From positions 1 to 17,126 of the forward strand of contig CAZECW010000008.1 in assembly GCA_964510585.1 (NCBI GenBank): DNA of 17,126 nt, in the 5' to 3' direction. The stretch comes from an uncultured archaeon (GTDB taxonomy: Archaea; Asgardarchaeota; Jordiarchaeia; Jordiarchaeales; Jordiarchaeaceae). Position numbers and translations under genes: made by a program. Below the pieces are notes generated by a model, which searched no databases, was not told where the DNA came from, and was given only the letters and a program-made list of their open reading frames with translations. Each line of letters opens with the position of its first letter. Within the stretch, counting starts at the first letter, position 1. This document shows, piece by piece, positions 1 through 6,819 of this stretch.

Positions 1-366
1 GGACATTCGGGCGAACGCCAAAGGGGGGAGGAAGCTAAACAAGATGGTGCACAATTTCTGGAGCCACCACTATCTCTTGAAGCGCATCCGAGAGGTCTCT
101 GAAGAATATGGTATTCGAGTCGAGGTGGTGAACGAGCGTGGAACGTCGAGCCAGTGTCCCTGGTGTGGGAGCGGTGAAGTGATAAAGCGGGGCAGACTGC
201 TTAAGTGCAAGCAATGTGGGATTGAGGCGCACCGAGATGTGGCAGGGGCATTAAACATAGGTGCCGTCTATAACGGAGGGCACGTTAACTGGGCGATGGC
301 ACACCCATTGGAGGTTCAAATATGAGCTTCCAAGAATCCCCCGACTTTAGTCGCGGAGAGTGTCAA
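1..366 (+). mobile_element. IS200/IS605-family element, right part with right end
   Basis: After tnpB come GAAT (334-337), the hairpin TCCCCCGAC-TTTA-GTCGCGGAGA and terminal TCAA (363-366). This is the GAAT guide / TCAA cleavage-site layout known from IS608-type right ends. Confidence 0.9.
2..325 (+). CDS. tnpB: TnpB (IS200/IS605 OrfB) RNA-guided nuclease, 3' part; runs off the left edge
   Basis: The frame is open from base 2 (DIRANAKGGRKLNKMVHNFW...). It has VNERGTSSQCPWCG...LLKCKQCG (zinc ribbon) and HRDVAGALNI (RuvC-III Asp), and stops at TGA 323-325. Confidence 0.93.
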   Translation, partial: DIRANAKGGRKLNKMVHNFWSHHYLLKRIREVSEEYGIRVEVVNERGTSSQCPWCGSGEVIKRGRLLKCKQCGIEAHRDVAGALNIGAVYNGGHVNWAMAHPLEVQI

Positions 367-960: not shown

Positions 961-2607
961 CTACTCCCTTAGCTGCCTCTTTAGAACCTTCCCTGTTAAA
1001 CTCATAGGAAGTTCCTTACGGAACTCAATAATTTTTGGCACCTTATACTTGGCTAAATTATTTCTTAGAAAATTCATAATGTCCTCTTTTAATTCTGGAC
1101 TTTCCTGGTAGCCTTCCTTTAGCACTATGAATACCTTCACTCTTTCACTACCCGGACGTTCAGGATCCGGAACACCAACAGTTGCAGCCAGAGCCACTGC
1201 GGGATGCTGGTGAACAACCTCATCCACTTCCCTAGAGAAGACCTTGTATCCTGAAACATTAATCATATCCTTTGTACGGTCTACTATGTAGAAGTAGCCA
1301 TCTTCATCCATATAGCCCACATCTCCTGTAAATAGCCAACCGTCCTTGAGGGCGTGGGCGGTTTCCTCAGGCTTGTTCCAGTAGCCCTTGTAGAATACCT
1401 GTGGACCGTACACTGCTAATTCGCCTTTTTCACCCACAGGCAAAGCTTCTCTTGTGTTGATGTCCACGACCTTAACTATGGTGTCTGCAACGGGTAAACC
1501 CACGGAGCCGACCTTTTTCTTTCCTTTGAAGGGCATAATTGTTGCACAGGGGCTTGCTTCTGTGAGTCCCCAGATCTCCACCACCACGCCTTTGGTTTTG
1601 GATTGCAACTCCTTAATGATTTCTACCGGCATTGGGGCTGCAGCGCTCAAAAATTGTTCAGCGTTGACCACTTTGGATTCAAAGAATTTGGGATTCTTTA
1701 GTAGCATCATGTATAGGGTGGGCACGTTCACTATCCATTTGGGATTATAATCGTTTATTAGTTGAATTATGTTGTCTGTGTCTCGTGGGTTCCATACTAG
1801 GCACTGAGCGCCTCCAATGGTTACCGCCACCAGGCAAACTATCAGTCCTGCTACGTGGAACATGGGGAAAGCTGAGCAGAAGGTGTCTGTTCCAAAGGTG
1901 GGATTAAACCAAGTGTAAACCTGGTATATGTTGCACACCATGTTGCGGTGGGTGAGAACCACACCCTTGGGAAGGCCGGTGGTGCCTCCTGTATACTGTA
2001 GGATTGCCTCATCCTCTTCAGGGTCAATTTTTATTTTTGGAGGTTGAGGCGGATGAGTTCTAATTAGGGTGAGGAACTGTTTGGCTCCTTCCACCTCTTT
2101 AGGCTCAGCTAGGGGTCCTGGCTGCTGGGGAAAGTCGCCTAAGCCAGCAATGATTATGTTTTTCAGTTTGGTGTTGGGCTTGACTTCATTTACTCGGGAG
2201 AGGAATAGGTCTAGGGATATTATTGTTTCTGCTCCTGAGTCGTTTAGGATGAATTCTATTTCTCGGGGTGAGAGTAGGGGGTTTATTCCTACCACTGTCC
2301 CTCCGGCTTTAAGTATTCCGTATATGCTTATTACGTATTGTGGGACGTTAAGCATAAGGAGGGCTACTCTACTGCCCTTTTTAACTCCCATATCTGCCAG
2401 TGCATTGGCAAAACGATCTACATATTCTCCCAATTCTTTGTAAGTTACTGTTCTTTTGCCCCAGAAAAGTGCTGGCTTATCTGGAAAATTTTTCACCGAC
2501 TCGTTGAGGGTATCATAAACTGGTATTTTTGGATAATTTATGGTCTTTGGAACATCTTTATCATAGTTTTTTAACCATGGTTTTGAGAGGTACACTTTTT
2601 CGGCCAA
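961..2607 (-). CDS. fadD: Long-chain fatty-acid--CoA ligase (AMP-dependent synthetase)
   Basis: Motifs QYTGGTTGLPKG, WGLTEASP, GWLFTGDVG, DRTKDMINVSGYKV and TGKVLKR. The TTG start is preceded by GGAGG. Confidence 0.92.
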   Translation of the reverse strand: MAEKVYLSKPWLKNYDKDVPKTINYPKIPVYDTLNESVKNFPDKPALFWGKRTVTYKELGEYVDRFANALADMGVKKGSRVALLMLNVPQYVISIYGILKAGGTVVGINPLLSPREIEFILNDSGAETIISLDLFLSRVNEVKPNTKLKNIIIAGLGDFPQQPGPLAEPKEVEGAKQFLTLIRTHPPQPPKIKIDPEEDEAILQYTGGTTGLPKGVVLTHRNMVCNIYQVYTWFNPTFGTDTFCSAFPMFHVAGLIVCLVAVTIGGAQCLVWNPRDTDNIIQLINDYNPKWIVNVPTLYMMLLKNPKFFESKVVNAEQFLSAAAPMPVEIIKELQSKTKGVVVEIWGLTEASPCATIMPFKGKKKVGSVGLPVADTIVKVVDINTREALPVGEKGELAVYGPQVFYKGYWNKPEETAHALKDGWLFTGDVGYMDEDGYFYIVDRTKDMINVSGYKVFSREVDEVVHQHPAVALAATVGVPDPERPGSERVKVFIVLKEGYQESPELKEDIMNFLRNNLAKYKVPKIIEFRKELPMSLTGKVLKRQLRE

Positions 2608-2803: not shown

Positions 2804-4201
2804 TTATGTGAGTTTCTTTTTTGTTCCTATTAGATACTCTGGTTGGAAGATTTTCTCTATTGTTTTTTCGTCCATCAATCCCTTTTCTAAAACCAACTGC
2901 CTAACTGATACTCCTTTGCTGAGTGCTTCTTTTGCGATTTCAGCCGCCTTAAGGTATCCGATATGTGGTGAGAGAAGGGTAACAAGCGAAGGGTTCTTTT
3001 CAAGGTACTCTTTACACCTTTCACGGTTAGCTTTTATCTCCAATACACATTTTGTGGTAAAAACGGGAAGATAATTTACTAGGATGTCTATGGATTGGAG
3101 GAGGTTGTGGATTATTACGGGCATCATCACGTTAAGTTCTAGTTGTCCCGCCTGCACCGCTAAGGATATGGTGAGGTCGTTTCCCACAATTTGGAAACCT
3201 ATCATATCTAAACACTCACACATTACGGGATTCACTTTTCCGGGCATCATTGATGAGCCTGGTTGAACCGCTGGTAGTACAATCTCTGAGAGGCCAGTGG
3301 TTGGCCCAGAGTTGAGGAGGCGTAGGTCATTTGCTATGCGAATTAGTTCCAAGGCAAGTTCTTTTAGTCCACTTGACACTGCGGCTATTTTGAGTTGGCT
3401 CTGCTGTGCTTCAAAGGGATCAGATGCTGGTTTAAGGTTAAGAGAACTTATTTCAGAGAGCTTTTTCACCGCTGTTTCTCTATATTTTGGGTGCGTGTTA
3501 ACGCCTGTTCCAGTTGCTGTGCCACCCAAAGCTACCTCCTCTATCTCTTGTTTTCTAATTTTTAGTTGTCTTAGGGCTCGGTCTATTGCTGACGCGTAAG
3601 CATTGAATTCCTGTCCTAGGGTAACTGGTAAGGCGTCATTAAGATGGGTTCTCCCAGATTTTATCACATCGGCAAACTCTTCTCCCTTCTTGCGAAAAGC
3701 GTCTCTGAGATTTTCCAGTACAATAAACAGTTTTTGCAGACCTAGAATTGTGGCTACATGCATAGCGGTGGGGAAGGTATCATTAGTTGATTGTGCCATG
3801 TTAACGTGATCGTTTGGGCTTATTGTTTTGTATTCACCTTTGGGTCTGCCAATTATTTCTAAGGCGCGGTTGGCTAGTACCTCATTTACATTCATGTTAA
3901 AGGAGGTGCCCGCCCCTGCTTGGAAAACATCTACCACAAATTGATCCATTAGTTTGCCTCCCAGAACTTCATCACAAGCCTGAACTATGGCCTCCCCTAT
4001 TTTGGGATCTAGAAAACCCACCTCCATATTGGTCAGGGCGGCAGCCTTCTTTACCATAACGTAAGCCTTTACAAAAAGGGGATGTTCCCTCAACCCACTA
4101 ACGGGAAAATTTTCTAGTGCTCTTTGAGTCTGAATTCCATAATAAGCCTCAAATGGCACCTCCTTCTCTCCTAACGAATCCAGCTCTCTCCGCATTCTCA
4201 T
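2804..4201 (-). CDS. aspA: Aspartate ammonia-lyase / class II fumarase family, aspartase-like; likely start ATG 4201 or 4195
   Basis: Motifs DSLGEKEVP..AYYGIQTQRALENF, GAGTSFNMNVNEV, QSTNDTFPT, KSGRTH, GSSMMPGKVNP and GQLELNV. EIVLPAVQPG resembles AspA more than FumC (ENEPG). Confidence 0.85.
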   Translation of the reverse strand: MRMRRELDSLGEKEVPFEAYYGIQTQRALENFPVSGLREHPLFVKAYVMVKKAAALTNMEVGFLDPKIGEAIVQACDEVLGGKLMDQFVVDVFQAGAGTSFNMNVNEVLANRALEIIGRPKGEYKTISPNDHVNMAQSTNDTFPTAMHVATILGLQKLFIVLENLRDAFRKKGEEFADVIKSGRTHLNDALPVTLGQEFNAYASAIDRALRQLKIRKQEIEEVALGGTATGTGVNTHPKYRETAVKKLSEISSLNLKPASDPFEAQQSQLKIAAVSSGLKELALELIRIANDLRLLNSGPTTGLSEIVLPAVQPGSSMMPGKVNPVMCECLDMIGFQIVGNDLTISLAVQAGQLELNVMMPVIIHNLLQSIDILVNYLPVFTTKCVLEIKANRERCKEYLEKNPSLVTLLSPHIGYLKAAEIAKEALSKGVSVRQLVLEKGLMDEKTIEKIFQPEYLIGTKKKLT

Positions 4202-4417
4202 AACTATCCAACCAGCGTCAATTACAGACTGTTGACTACAGAAAAAGTTTACTCTCACTATAAAAATTTAATTCCCGTAAGTTAAGAGAATAGGAGAGGG
4301 AAACAAAAAATATTAATGTTTACTCCGAATCGAAGAAATAAGTTAGGAATTGTGGGTTCACCCATTTTAACATTTCTAATAAAAAGGAAAGCCCACATCC
4401 CCAAAGAATTAAGTCTT

Positions 4418-4978
4418 TTAGAATAATTCAGGTTTCTTCAGATGGAAATGGTACACGAATTGGCATACCGGATCTCCTCGGGATCGGCAGAGCACCTCAT
4501 TGCAGGTAACTGAATCTGCACCCCAATCCTCTAATCTGTGTTCTTCAATCCATTCCATGATTCCGGACAGTGTATTACACATAAACAATTGGGGTGATGG
4601 AGAAATCAAATCTTTACAGAGGGGACAGTCCGCTATAGTGTAGGTTATATGTACATCGCTTCCTTCTTTCTTAAATTCGGTTTTATCAAAAGTTGTTCCC
4701 GTGAAGAATTTGAATCCAAGATTATAAGCGGACTTGGGGTCAGCCAATTCTTCTAGACTTTTTGCGGGTCTCTGAGTTGCAGCTAGATATCTGGTATAGA
4801 TAAATTCACCCATGTCTCTCCCTATTTTTTTTAACTCTTGGTTAACTATTGCTGGATCCCTATGAATTTTCATAAAATAGCTAATTAGAGCTTGTACCAA
4901 GGATCTATAGACGAGTATGTTAATTTTTTCGGCTTTTATTCTCCAGGCTAGTACTCCTTTTACACCCAAATTTTTCAC
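4418..4978 (-). CDS. V4R-domain protein with Bet3/TRAPP-like features
   Basis: It has a V4R Cys pattern (DCPLC, MCN, EVLCRSRGDPVCQF) and the N-terminal helices VNQELKKIGRDMG. The GTG start overlaps the upstream stop (GTGA). Confidence 0.8.
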   Translation of the reverse strand: MKNLGVKGVLAWRIKAEKINILVYRSLVQALISYFMKIHRDPAIVNQELKKIGRDMGEFIYTRYLAATQRPAKSLEELADPKSAYNLGFKFFTGTTFDKTEFKKEGSDVHITYTIADCPLCKDLISPSPQLFMCNTLSGIMEWIEEHRLEDWGADSVTCNEVLCRSRGDPVCQFVYHFHLKKPELF

Positions 4979-5733
4979 CTCTTTATTTTTCTAAATCCTG
5001 AAACATATTTTATCGCTCCCTTTGCTCCAAAATCGCCGGTTGTTATCATTACTCGCGCTTTAGATATGCCAAGCTCCTCTGCTATATCATCAACAGTATG
5101 GTCGCCGTCACAGAGCTGGAGAATAGCTATCGCCATTGGTTCCTTTACCTTTTTCAAAATATTTTTGTCGACAAGTACGGGATAACTCACAGTTATGGTT
5201 ACTTCGGCTCCTCCTTCTTGGGAGGAGGACGCTAAAACTGGCTCGCTGGGTTTTTCTACCTCTATTTCCTCAGCGTAAGCCTCCTCTGGAATAGACTTGG
5301 CTATTTCAAGTTCTTCTGCTGCAGAAACTGCTTGCACAACTTTAAGAGGCGCCTCAGGAACTTTTTCGGCTACTGCTTTGACCTGCGGGGCGGGGAGCTC
5401 TTTTTCCAGCTCTTTGAACAAGTCCGTGTAATTCTCTTCTATGCGTTTACCAGCGACAATTAGAACCCCTTCCTTTTCATAGCTCTCTATAGCAAGGATT
5501 ATACGGGGAGAAGCCTTATAAATCAGTAGATTGCTTTTTGGCAACTTTTTAAGCTGGTAATCCCCCGGACTCCAAACTGGGAAAACTCTACTTAGCTGTT
5601 TGACGGCGGCCACAGATTCTGCCATAAGTGAAGAGTAGAGTATATTGCCACTATCATCTAGAAACGCCAAGTAACATTTCTTGGGCATAAACTTCGCAAT
5701 ATTTTCGGCGATTTCTTTAAATCTCTTCTCCAT
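4975..5733 (-). CDS. Roadblock/longin-like N-terminal domain, acidic linker and C-terminal winged helix
   Basis: Residues 1-110 show an alpha-beta-beta-alpha-beta-beta-beta-alpha hydrophobic pattern, followed by an E/A/P-rich linker. The C-terminus YPVL...ILQLCDGDHTVDDIAEELGISKARV is a wHTH. Confidence 0.65.
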   Translation of the reverse strand: MEKRFKEIAENIAKFMPKKCYLAFLDDSGNILYSSLMAESVAAVKQLSRVFPVWSPGDYQLKKLPKSNLLIYKASPRIILAIESYEKEGVLIVAGKRIEENYTDLFKELEKELPAPQVKAVAEKVPEAPLKVVQAVSAAEELEIAKSIPEEAYAEEIEVEKPSEPVLASSSQEGGAEVTITVSYPVLVDKNILKKVKEPMAIAILQLCDGDHTVDDIAEELGISKARVMITTGDFGAKGAIKYVSGFRKIKR

Positions 5734-5866
5734 GGTTACTGCCTGTCCAAATTTATGCTTTAGTATATATTAAAAATATTTAACATATTAAATCTTTTTG
5801 GAGCGCAAAATTCATAAAAAGACTCCAAAAAAGCAAAACCCCCAGCCTTCAGAAGTTCCCAACCTT

Positions 5867-6625
5867 TTAGCCGAAACCGTCCAGGAACGCCTTTACATTT
5901 TTACCCAAATCTCGATGATAGTATCCGCCTTCCAAGATTGCGAAGCGTCTCCCCGAACAAACTTTTTCTGAAAACTCCTTCACCATGGCGCCAATGGTTT
6001 TATAATCCTCGGTTTTCAATCGGCCTCCCCAGTCCAACTCATACTCATCAAAACCAGCGGAACATGCAACAATGTCACATCCTCGGGCAGCTTCAACCTT
6101 CAATTGCTCCGAAATTTCCTCCAAGTACTCTTTTCTACCGCCGTGATTCGGGTTAAGGATGGAAATTCCGGGTAGACCGCCAAGAATGTTCACTGTTCCA
6201 TCTCCAAAGTGTAAATCGAAGTCCAGAATAAACACTTTCTCAGCCTTACCCTCACTCCTAAGCTTCAAAATGGCAATAGCCATATTGTTAAAAAAGCAGA
6301 ACCCCCAGCAAGAGTCGCTAGAAGCGTGGTGACCGGGAGGACGAATCAAACCAAAAGCAGGCTCCCCACCATAACCGATTTCGGCAGCCATAATAGCGCC
6401 GCCAGCTGAAAGAGCTGCCACCTCATAAAGCCTCTTGTCACTTTTAATGGAATCAATGTGTCTCTGGGTATGAGCCCTCCTTATATCCTCCTCAGTGGCT
6501 GGTTTAGGCTCCACAAACTCAAAGTGCTTATAAAGGGCGTCATAAATACTCTCAATCCGCCCTGCCTTAGCCGCTGGGTCAGAAGCGTAAACAATTTTGT
6601 ACATTTCGTGGTAAACAATCTTCAA
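5867..6625 (-). CDS. Zn-dependent histone deacetylase-family (Rpd3/Hda1/AcuC superfamily) protein, compact; start TTG 6625, 6631 or 6643
   Basis: Motifs RPPGHHA, GFCFFNNMAIA, ILDFDLHFGDGT, SAGFD and LEGGY. GGAGGT lies upstream of the TTG codons at 6631 and 6625. Confidence 0.92.
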   Translation of the reverse strand: MKIVYHEMYKIVYASDPAAKAGRIESIYDALYKHFEFVEPKPATEEDIRRAHTQRHIDSIKSDKRLYEVAALSAGGAIMAAEIGYGGEPAFGLIRPPGHHASSDSCWGFCFFNNMAIAILKLRSEGKAEKVFILDFDLHFGDGTVNILGGLPGISILNPNHGGRKEYLEEISEQLKVEAARGCDIVACSAGFDEYELDWGGRLKTEDYKTIGAMVKEFSEKVCSGRRFAILEGGYYHRDLGKNVKAFLDGFG

Positions 6626-6819
6626 AGCCAACCCAACCTCCAAACCAACAAGTAAGCTCCCTTATGAATAGGACTATGAAGGTATTAAATTTTTGCGCCT
6701 GTTGAAAACATCTTAAAAATAGTTTCACCTTTTTTGCACTAGTTTGGTTACAGTTAGAAGGCGGGGTAGACACGGAAGTTTTTAGGGAAGGGAAAAGGTT
6801 TTATTTTTGGAAGGTAGCC

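Follow-up and report, generated by a model that had tools for sequence, protein, structure and literature searches.

A roadblock-winged-helix gene paired with a Bet3-like gene in Asgard archaea, a candidate prokaryotic forerunner of TRAPP/GATOR-type GTPase regulators

The core of the eukaryotic transport protein particle (TRAPP), a guanine nucleotide exchange factor (GEF) for Rab1 and Rab11, is assembled from the Bet3-fold subunits Bet3/TRAPPC3, Trs31, and Trs33 and the longin subunits Bet5, Trs23, and Trs20. Roadblock and longin domains are the usual platforms for GTPases. In the conservons of actinobacteria, a roadblock protein (CvnB) is encoded together with a DUF742 protein (CvnC), a GTPase (CvnD), and a sensor kinase. 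Among Asgard archaea, a TRAPPC3-like protein, Thor-TRAPPC3 (PDB 7yh2/7yh3), has been crystallized and found to hold Zn with four cysteines and to enclose an internal cavity (Tran et al. 2024, PMC10933270), and "NPRL2-like proteins" consisting of a longin and a small C-terminal domain have been reported from most Thor and a few Loki metagenome-assembled genomes (MAGs) (Liu et al. 2020, 10.1101/2020.10.19.343400). Here, we studied a stretch of 17,126 nucleotides (nt), referred to as the window, from an uncultured archaeon of the Jordiarchaeaceae (contig CAZECW010000008.1 of assembly GCA_964510585.1), and in particular two adjacent genes on its minus strand. Gene 1 encodes P0001, a roadblock domain joined to a winged helix-turn-helix (wHTH), and gene 2 encodes P0002, a Bet3-like protein. 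Both open reading frames (ORFs) are present where a first-pass annotation of the sequence had placed them. The two products have these folds in structure models, the junction between the genes has a conserved anatomy, and the pairing is conserved widely across Asgard archaea; we regard the pair as a candidate prokaryotic forerunner of eukaryotic TRAPP/GATOR-type GTPase regulators.

To follow the pairing, 400 genomes of the phylum were scanned for the Bet3-like family at a threshold of E<=1e-20, and each place found outside the genus of the window was scored by purpose-built hidden Markov models (HMMs) run on its ORFs. The family occurs in 34 of the 400 genomes, at 42 places, and at 32 of these (29 of the 34 genomes, belonging to seven families) the Bet3-like gene is adjoined by a gene for a protein whose winged helix is homologous to that of P0001. 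Thus, the adjacency, for which the first-pass annotation had proposed synteny across Asgard MAGs as a check, is conserved. Exceptions to the layout within the 32 places are the second gene of a tandem in the closed genome, which is separated from the partner by the first Bet3-like gene, and a reversed order of the two genes (L037). Within the genus, the order HDAC-like gene, gene 1, gene 2 (duplicated once), and fumarase gene is kept in six of six genomes, and the closed Freyarchaeum genome carries a second, paralogous copy of the pair amid wholly different neighbors; on a syntenic contig of another MAG, gene 2 has been lost there.

The partner of the Bet3-like protein differs among families in its N-terminal domain. 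This domain is of roadblock type in three of them (f1, f4, and f6), and in the Thor family (f31) structural rows of the ESM-Atlas and the pattern of secondary structure indicate a roadblock-like fold; an hhalign comparison of the roadblock domain with the Thor partner family gave an alignment confined to the winged helix. The partner in f14, a protein of 160 amino acids (aa) at L031, was matched through its winged helix only. A longin-type partner is found in f24, in f25, and on one contig from ENA; one such protein, P0072, exceeds the Pfam cut-off for Longin (31 vs. 26.2 bits), and the protein encoded downstream of it is Bet3-like with an hhalign probability of 99.3%. Because the N-terminal domain of the partner alternates between roadblock and longin while the Bet3-like protein stays, the conserved unit is a roadblock/longin platform plus a Bet3-like protein, i.e., the two folds of the TRAPP core.

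In each of the 16 Thor genomes that gave a match, a winged-helix partner adjoins the Bet3-like gene, and the ortholog of the crystallized Thor-TRAPPC3 (7yh3) is itself encoded directly 3' of a roadblock plus winged-helix gene, a conserved partner that goes unmentioned in Tran et al. 2024 (PMC10933270). The Thor genes are part of a larger cluster (at L023:1893-8034, with the same layout at L024, L026, L028, L032, L033, and L042-L051), which encodes in turn a PfkB-like kinase, a roadblock-like partner with two winged helices, a Bet3-like protein of 168 aa, a conserved, multi-pass membrane protein of 171 aa, a paralogous partner, the Thor-TRAPPC3 ortholog (157 aa, E 4e-78), and usually a third V4R-like protein (~183 aa). 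Counted by type, the cluster has two platform subunits, one membrane protein, and two or three subunits with the Bet3 fold.

The product of gene 2 is closest to TRAPPC3 both in its predicted structure and in profile searches, in agreement with the first-pass identification of a Bet3-like protein. Its AlphaFold 2 (AF2) model (predicted local distance difference test, pLDDT, 83.5) aligns with Thor-TRAPPC3 at a VIA Z-score of 16.6 and a root-mean-square deviation (rmsd) of 2.6 A over 151 residues, and with mouse and human Bet3 and Naegleria TRAPPC3 at Z 16.3-16.5; over the TRAPPC3/Bet3 structures as a whole, the rmsd is 2.4-2.9 A over 151-158 residues and the Foldseek template modeling (TM) score 0.62-0.79. 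Scores fall to Z of about 14 for Trs33/TPC6, about 10.5 for the V4R sensors MopR/PoxR/DmpR, and 8.9 for a V4R protein of M. jannaschii. The possibility that P0002 is an ordinary V4R sensor was considered and rejected, the structure being nearer to TRAPPC3 (Z 16.3-16.6 vs. about 10.5). Searched against PDB sequences, a profile of P0002 orthologs matches TRAPPC3 of Naegleria (E 1.5e-9), Bet3 of yeast, and TRAPPC3 of Drosophila (both ~5e-5), compared with E 7e-4 for the crystallized Thor protein, and it finds no V4R protein in the PDB, bacterial ones included, even at E 1. When the C-terminal half of P0002 was searched by itself against PDB sequences, the single sequence gave no match and the profile gave chance-level matches only (E above 0.5). 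P0002 stays under the Pfam cut-offs for both V4R (PF02830; 24.2 vs. 31 bits) and TRAPP (PF04051; 22.5 vs. 27 bits); two orthologs exceed the V4R cut-off (35.2 bits at L016 and 31.2 bits at L018), and PF04051 is precomputed for some orthologs.

Residues C118, C121, C134, C164, C172, and H177 are invariant in 17 orthologs of P0002, and C118, C121, C134, and C172 align with all four cysteines of the crystallized Thor-TRAPPC3. Since those are the Zn-binding residues of the Thor protein, P0002 appears to keep the prokaryotic metal site: at the level of sequence, it would carry a cysteine-based site joining the beta-sheet to a helix, and we describe it as a TRAPPC3-like protein that by all appearances retains this site. 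The two proteins are ~20% identical and differ in that P0002 has a conserved N-terminal extension, MG(V/I)KG-x-x-AWR-x-x-AEK, and the additional pair E161/C164. E161, C164, and C172 fall within the stretch of P0002 that matches Pfam V4R (residues 112-176), and their spacing is one that we take to resemble the V4R metal site. In eukaryotic Bet3, the Cys/Zn site has been replaced (PMC10933270). Bet3-like proteins paired with a roadblock partner have all five cysteines; those paired with a longin partner (L013, L017, and L021; three aligned) are without the CxxC and C134, with C164 and C172 kept. There may be two designs of metal site that track the type of partner. Elsewhere in the genome of the window, tandem genes for proteins of ~410-440 aa, whose C-terminal V4R domain exceeds the Pfam cut-off, occur at C76:17359-22712 (four genes) and C150:22967-25569 (two genes), and a Ras-like gene (C76:24454-24963) lies ~2 kb from the array on C76.

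The product of gene 1 was modeled with AF2 on an alignment of 23 sequences. In the N-terminal domain, the model places helices at residues 2-15, 38-53, and 88-111 and strands at 20-26, 31-34, 59-63, 68-73, and 78-84, and the resulting order, alpha-beta-beta-alpha-beta-beta-beta-alpha, is the roadblock topology. The top Foldseek match is a Lokiarchaeota Roadblock structure (8yql; probability 1.0, TM-score by target 0.70), further matches with a probability of 1.0 include MglB (6h5b), LAMTOR (5x6u/6ehr), and a Thor Roadblock (7f8m), and MK-D1 Roadblock proteins are also among the matches. Pfam Robl_LC7 (PF03259) gave no match to P0001 at E<=1. The domain is followed by an acidic linker (net charge -8, isoelectric point [pI] 4.3) that varies between homologs in length and sequence, and then by the winged helix, with the motif P-V-L-x-D...LKK...IL-x-L-C-D-G-x-x-T-I-x-E-I-A. 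The roadblock-wHTH identity proposed at first pass is borne out by this topology, by the Foldseek matches to Roadblock, MglB, and LAMTOR, and by a well-modeled winged helix at residues 177-252. All Pfam matches of the winged helix (HTH_5, HTH_47, DUF742, and TrmB) are under threshold; its profile matches MJ223 at E 7.6e-5, archaeal transcription factors at ~1e-3, and residues 192-238 of human NPRL2 at E 2.5e-3. It has a pI of 8.8 and a net charge of +2, and its homologs a pI of 8-9.5 and a charge of +1 to +5.

The 25 homologs of P0001 all come from Jord- and Freyarchaeia-type MAGs, and an exhaustive HMMER search yielded 78 representative relatives with a roadblock-like or longin N-terminal domain, low-complexity linkers, and one to four winged helices. 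Few of the relatives are named, and all of those are from Asgard MAGs with the exception of two whose labels resemble mis-binning. Distant relatives of Baldr-, Prometheo-, and Frey-type have neither a Bet3-like nor a GTPase neighbor. Shorter and rearranged forms also occur. In the genome of the window, a 134-aa paralog (G000:C191:17115-17450, L003) corresponds to the roadblock domain of P0001 (E 1e-26) without linker or winged helix; other Jordarchaeaceae MAGs encode roadblock-only forms of 181-183 aa (P0025-P0027) that are without a Bet3-like neighbor; and in the Baldrarchaeia proteins P0047/P0123 (L010:5001-6281), a roadblock-type N-terminal domain and a Pro-rich linker are kept, but the winged helix is replaced by a C-terminal domain of ~250 aa that matches no Pfam family.

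The junction between the two genes differs from the one first described for them. The first-pass annotation had reported a four-letter overlap, GTGA, at 4975-4978 and had taken it as the basis for coupled expression. The letters are there (4978-4975 on the minus strand), although the genes do not overlap. The 16 orthologs of P0002 are all 183-192 aa long with an N terminus of M/L-GVKG, the equivalent of which in the window starts at the TTG at 4969-4967. We aligned the junctions of four loci from three genomes (the window and three related loci). In all four, AAAGAGGTGAA is invariant and is followed by a spacer of 5-7 nt and a conserved TTG/ATG-GG(A/T)-GTA-AAA-GG, and two of the three related loci carry an insertion of 2 nt that takes the GTG out of frame. 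The GTG at 4978 was therefore rejected as the start of gene 2, on the ortholog N termini and on its loss of frame in two loci; it is part of a Shine-Dalgarno-like site, GAGGTGA, and is very unlikely to be a start codon. GAGGTGA is complementary to the usual 3' end of archaeal 16S rRNA. As read from the aligned sequences, the junction is a stop codon lying within a Shine-Dalgarno-like site, then 5 nt, then TTG, with no 4-nt overlap. Such a layout is compatible with translational coupling of the two genes, so that this part of the earlier proposal survives on a different basis: the Shine-Dalgarno-like site overlaps the stop codon of gene 1, and hence both products are probably made together. Upstream, T-runs are found at 5810-5835 behind the stop codon of the HDAC-like gene, and the gap between that gene and gene 1 is 133 nt in the window and 138-156 nt in relatives. 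From these signals and the AT-rich, TATA-like stretch ~35 nt 5' of the gene 1 ATG (Table 1), we infer a bicistronic unit with a promoter of its own.

Table 1. Coordinates of the gene pair, its parts, and neighboring features in the window
Feature	Position	Strand	Remarks
Gene 1 (P0001 ORF)	4975-5733	minus	252 aa
Roadblock-fold domain of P0001	5398-5733	minus	aa 1-112; AF2 pLDDT 82-93
Acidic linker of P0001	5206-5397	minus	aa 113-176; predicted disordered, pLDDT 28-35
C-terminal winged helix-turn-helix of P0001	4978-5205	minus	aa 177-252; pLDDT 82-94
Shine-Dalgarno-like GAGGTGA	4975-4981	minus	includes gene 1 TGA stop; invariant in 4 loci from 3 genomes
Gene 2 (P0002 from TTG start)	4418-4969	minus	183 aa + stop; start set by orthologs
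P0002 ORF if read from GTG	4418-4978	minus	186 aa
AT-rich TATA/B recognition element-like stretch	5760-5792	minus	~30-55 nt 5' of gene 1 ATG; putative operon promoter, from sequence reading
3' flank of gene 2	4375-4417	minus	T-rich run 4381-4390; possible archaeal terminator, from sequence reading
HDAC-family gene	5867-6643	minus	upstream neighbor of gene 1
Class II fumarase/aspartase gene	2804-4258		downstream neighbor of gene 2
Acyl-CoA synthetase gene	961-2607		downstream side of pair

If the pair serves a GTPase, the gene for that GTPase lies elsewhere in the genome. A Ras-type HMM made from the genome's own GTPases has no match in the window, as the first-pass annotation had noted for GTPase genes, and matches 31 ORFs in the rest of the genome, which has 24-31 genes of the Ras superfamily. 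The genome also has 17 places that match Robl_LC7 (PF03259), none of them on the contig of the window, and Robl_LC7 genes adjoin Ras-like genes on C60, C196, C117, and C54. A GTPase gene is found beside a Bet3-like gene in f2, the sister family in the order of the window's genome, in which the roadblock-wHTH/Bet3-like pairing is dissolved. The f2 loci (L027:2997-8160 and L034:495-7071) hold an array encoding a KaiB/thioredoxin-like protein, a KaiC-like protein, a fusion of a KaiC N-terminal domain with an Arf/Ras GTPase, a Robl_LC7 protein (42.5 bits), a second KaiC-like protein, and a Bet3-like protein; a Ras-family GTPase gene follows 0.5 kb 3' of the Bet3-like gene, with another close by, and two genera share this arrangement. 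The genus of the window (L004 and L005) also has KaiC-like/DUF7125 ATPase genes, at a distance of a few kb from the pair.

Measured against the systems described above, the pair combines features of several. It shares with the TRAPP core the combination of Bet3-fold subunits with subunits of the longin/roadblock superfamily, P0002 being ~20% identical to mouse and human Bet3, and true longin domains are found in the partners of some Asgard lineages. It differs in having two genes rather than seven or more subunits, and in that the partner in the window is of roadblock rather than longin type and has a winged helix, which is absent from TRAPP. In the GATOR1 subunits NPRL2 and NPRL3, an N-terminal domain of the longin/roadblock superfamily is followed, as in P0001, by a small winged helix, and given the NPRL2-like proteins of Liu et al., the architecture of P0001 is of a kind already known. 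Foldseek aligns the whole of P0001 with GATOR1 chains of ~365 residues (E 7e-5 to 1e-3, 266-287 columns, with poor global superposition), and the GATOR1 entries 7t3a, 9o5a, 9o5d, and 9v0j contain NPRL2; further, one relative with several winged helices exceeds the Pfam cut-off for HTH_NPRL3 (32.8 vs. 27.2 bits). The match of the winged-helix profile to human NPRL2 (E 2.5e-3), however, is no better than that to archaeal transcription factors, P0001 has no Pfam NPR2/NPR3 match, the helix before beta1 gives it the roadblock rather than the longin order, and its partner is Bet3-like instead of a second NPRL paralog. NPRL2/NPRL3 are marked by a catalytic arginine finger and a GP motif (PMC12290439); the beta1-beta2 loop of P0001 reads D-D-S-G-N-I-L, without G-P, and the longin-type and Thor partners have G-x-P there.

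Likeness to the conservons lies in the roadblock domain and in a DUF742-like winged helix: nine of 15 winged helices of the family match DUF742 weakly, at best with E 4e-4. All DUF742 matches are under the cut-off of 27 bits, scores of 13.9-17.6 bits having been recorded; the window has no GTPase or kinase gene, and the locus does not qualify as a conservon. We know of no Bet3-like partner in the conservons or in roadblock/MglB-GTPase pairs. With the prokaryotic V4R proteins (MopR/PoxR/DmpR, MsvR, and the stand-alone MJ1460), P0002 shares a fold (Z 8.9-10.6) and a sub-threshold Pfam V4R match over its C-terminal half, but it carries no fused AAA+ or HTH output domain and instead stands alone beside a roadblock-wHTH gene.

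We give a probability of about 40% to the reading that the pair is a TRAPP/GATOR/Ragulator-like regulator or scaffold for a GTPase encoded elsewhere. By analogy with the longin and Bet3 subunits of TRAPP, a roadblock dimer would dock on a dimer of the Bet3-like protein; the latter would offer a Zn-stabilized pocket to a small hydrophobic ligand; the roadblock face would be the platform for a Ras-superfamily GTPase, of which the rest of the genome encodes many; and the winged helix would act as a protein-protein module, as in NPRL2/3, with no reading of DNA. It is this presumed assembly, pocket, and platform that would make the pair a regulator or scaffold of the TRAPP/GATOR/Ragulator kind. Gene order strongly suggests that P0001 and P0002 bind each other. 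A GTPase platform is favored because of the roadblock/longin nature of the partner, the exchange of its N-terminal domain beside a constant Bet3-like protein, the closeness of P0002 to TRAPPC3, and the f2 operon. The two to four tandem winged helices of some relatives suit a scaffold better than a classical repressor. A narrower version, which we hold to be doubtful, is a minimal archaeal TRAPP/GATOR-like heteromer, in which a platform with an NPRL2-like winged helix would sit on a Zn-stabilized TRAPPC3-like dimer and act as a GEF, GTPase-activating protein, or scaffold for Asgard GTPases of Rab/Rag/Arf-like type; if this were true, the longin-plus-Bet3 partnership of the TRAPP core would predate eukaryotes as a co-expressed gene pair.

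Several observations weigh against a GTPase regulator. At no locus with a roadblock/longin-wHTH partner is there a GTPase gene less than ~8 kb away from the pair, and over 305 kb of related loci the Ras HMM matches only the two f2 loci. The pairing is patchy: of 400 Asgard genomes, 34 reach the threshold set for the Bet3-like family, and in f2, in f5, and on one Frey-type contig the pairing is dissolved. The winged helix is mildly basic and matches ArsR, TrmB, MarR, and MJ223 at least as well as NPRL2. The contact between P0001 and P0002 is itself deduced from gene order, and a complex prediction with full-length P0001 and P0002 and their alignments reached a best score of 0.27 against a mark of 0.32, in a run without controls that counts neither for nor against an interface. 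Prokaryotic V4R-type domains are typically ligand sensors wired to transcription. For the Asgard TRAPPC3/V4R proteins, the likely role was given as "ligand binding," and membrane targeting was not seen (Tran et al. 2024, PMC10933270).

The main rival, which we consider unlikely though worth keeping in view, takes the pair for a split transcription regulator that senses a ligand or redox state. The cysteine cluster of the Bet3/V4R fold would sense a small molecule or a thiol/Zn state, P0002 would govern DNA binding by the winged helix, the roadblock domain would serve for nothing more than dimerization and docking, and the neighboring metabolic genes could be the targets. The winged-helix matches to ArsR, TrmB, and MarR families, MJ223, and archaeal transcription factors are what one would expect of such a protein, as is the basic character of the domain across homologs (pI 8-9.5, net charge +1 to +5), but every Pfam DNA-binding match of P0001 is under its cut-off, and the tandem winged helices and long low-complexity linkers of the relatives are unusual for repressors that bind operators. 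On the side of the sensor, the five invariant cysteines and one histidine of the P0002 orthologs, a weak NCBIfam match of residues 49-175 to MsvR (a redox regulator with HTH and V4R domains), and the likeness of the fold to the sensor domains of MopR/PoxR/DmpR (Z about 10.5) have to be set against a fold that clearly resembles TRAPPC3 more than V4R sensors. Within the genus, the pair keeps the HDAC-like gene on its upstream side and the class II fumarase/aspartase gene on its downstream side, and these could be regulated genes, yet the neighbors elsewhere are wholly different: an M20 peptidase and NurA, a PfkB kinase and a membrane protein (Thor), or a toxin-antitoxin pair (L021). Finally, the N-terminal domain swaps between roadblock and longin, both of them folds of GTPase platforms.

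It is also conceivable, but in our judgment improbable, that the complex acts on neither GTPases nor DNA and is, e.g., a carrier of hydrophobic small molecules or lipids, or a scaffold, that uses the cavity of the Bet3-like protein, possibly for delivery to a membrane partner. Thor-TRAPPC3 has internal cavities for which ligand binding or transport has been proposed, and eukaryotic Bet3 binds palmitate in the equivalent channel (Tran et al., PMC10933270). The first Thor pair is followed at 16 of 16 loci by the conserved 171-aa protein with several hydrophobic segments; the two-gene operon of the window, however, includes no membrane protein, the ligand is not known, and the constant roadblock/longin plus winged-helix partner would be left unexplained. 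Least probable, and in our view a distant prospect, is that the genes are co-transcribed neighbors with independent functions, whose products do not interact. The genes do occur apart, with gene 1 present without gene 2 at L008, the two separate in f2 and f5, and the short roadblock-only forms lacking a Bet3-like neighbor. Chance proximity would nevertheless have to account for a same-order adjacency through seven families, two paralogous loci, an exchange of the N-terminal domain, and a junction conserved at the nucleotide level.

The component families belong to the known "eukaryotic signature" proteins of Asgard archaea, and the conserved operon that joins them is new relative to the literature searched, in which we found no description of the gene pair, of the alternation between roadblock and longin, or of the membership of Thor-TRAPPC3 in such a pair. 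The label "candidate ancestral TRAPP/GATOR-type module" given at first pass holds in part: the GATOR-type likeness has weak sequence and structure support through NPRL2, and the term ancestral is conjectural. Small GTPases, roadblock/longin proteins, and TRAPPC3-like proteins are numerous in Asgard archaea, and genome layout has been found to be of little help in matching their regulators to partners (Tran et al. 2024, PMC10933270). The pair, kept in at least seven Asgard families, is a concrete, cloneable two-protein system for asking whether the partnership of Bet3 and longin subunits seen in TRAPP, or the longin-wHTH architecture of GATOR1, preceded eukaryotes. If it should turn out to be a ligand-sensing transcription factor, it would be a warning not to equate "eukaryotic signature" folds with trafficking machinery.

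The three sequencing runs that contain most of the window are hot-spring metagenomes, one of which may be the source sample, and no RNA run was listed as containing it; the closest homologs of the two proteins are labeled Freyarchaeota or Jordarchaeaceae. Besides the neighbors in Table 1, more distant genes of the window encode a DUF6512 membrane protein, Fe-S proteins, a nitroreductase, an enoyl-CoA hydratase, a GH106-like protein, and two dehydrogenases. The HDAC-family product is short (258 aa), with a partial Pfam match in two stretches of the 298-position model, and an HDAC-like gene lies directly upstream of the pair throughout the genus, encoding 252 aa in L004 and L005. The contig begins in the middle of a gene (2-325, plus strand), and the C terminus of its product gives a match of 66 bits to the Cas12f1-like/TnpB TNB domain (PF07282). 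It is at this gene that synteny with relatives (L005) ends, consistent with an insertion sequence (IS) element at the end of the contig.

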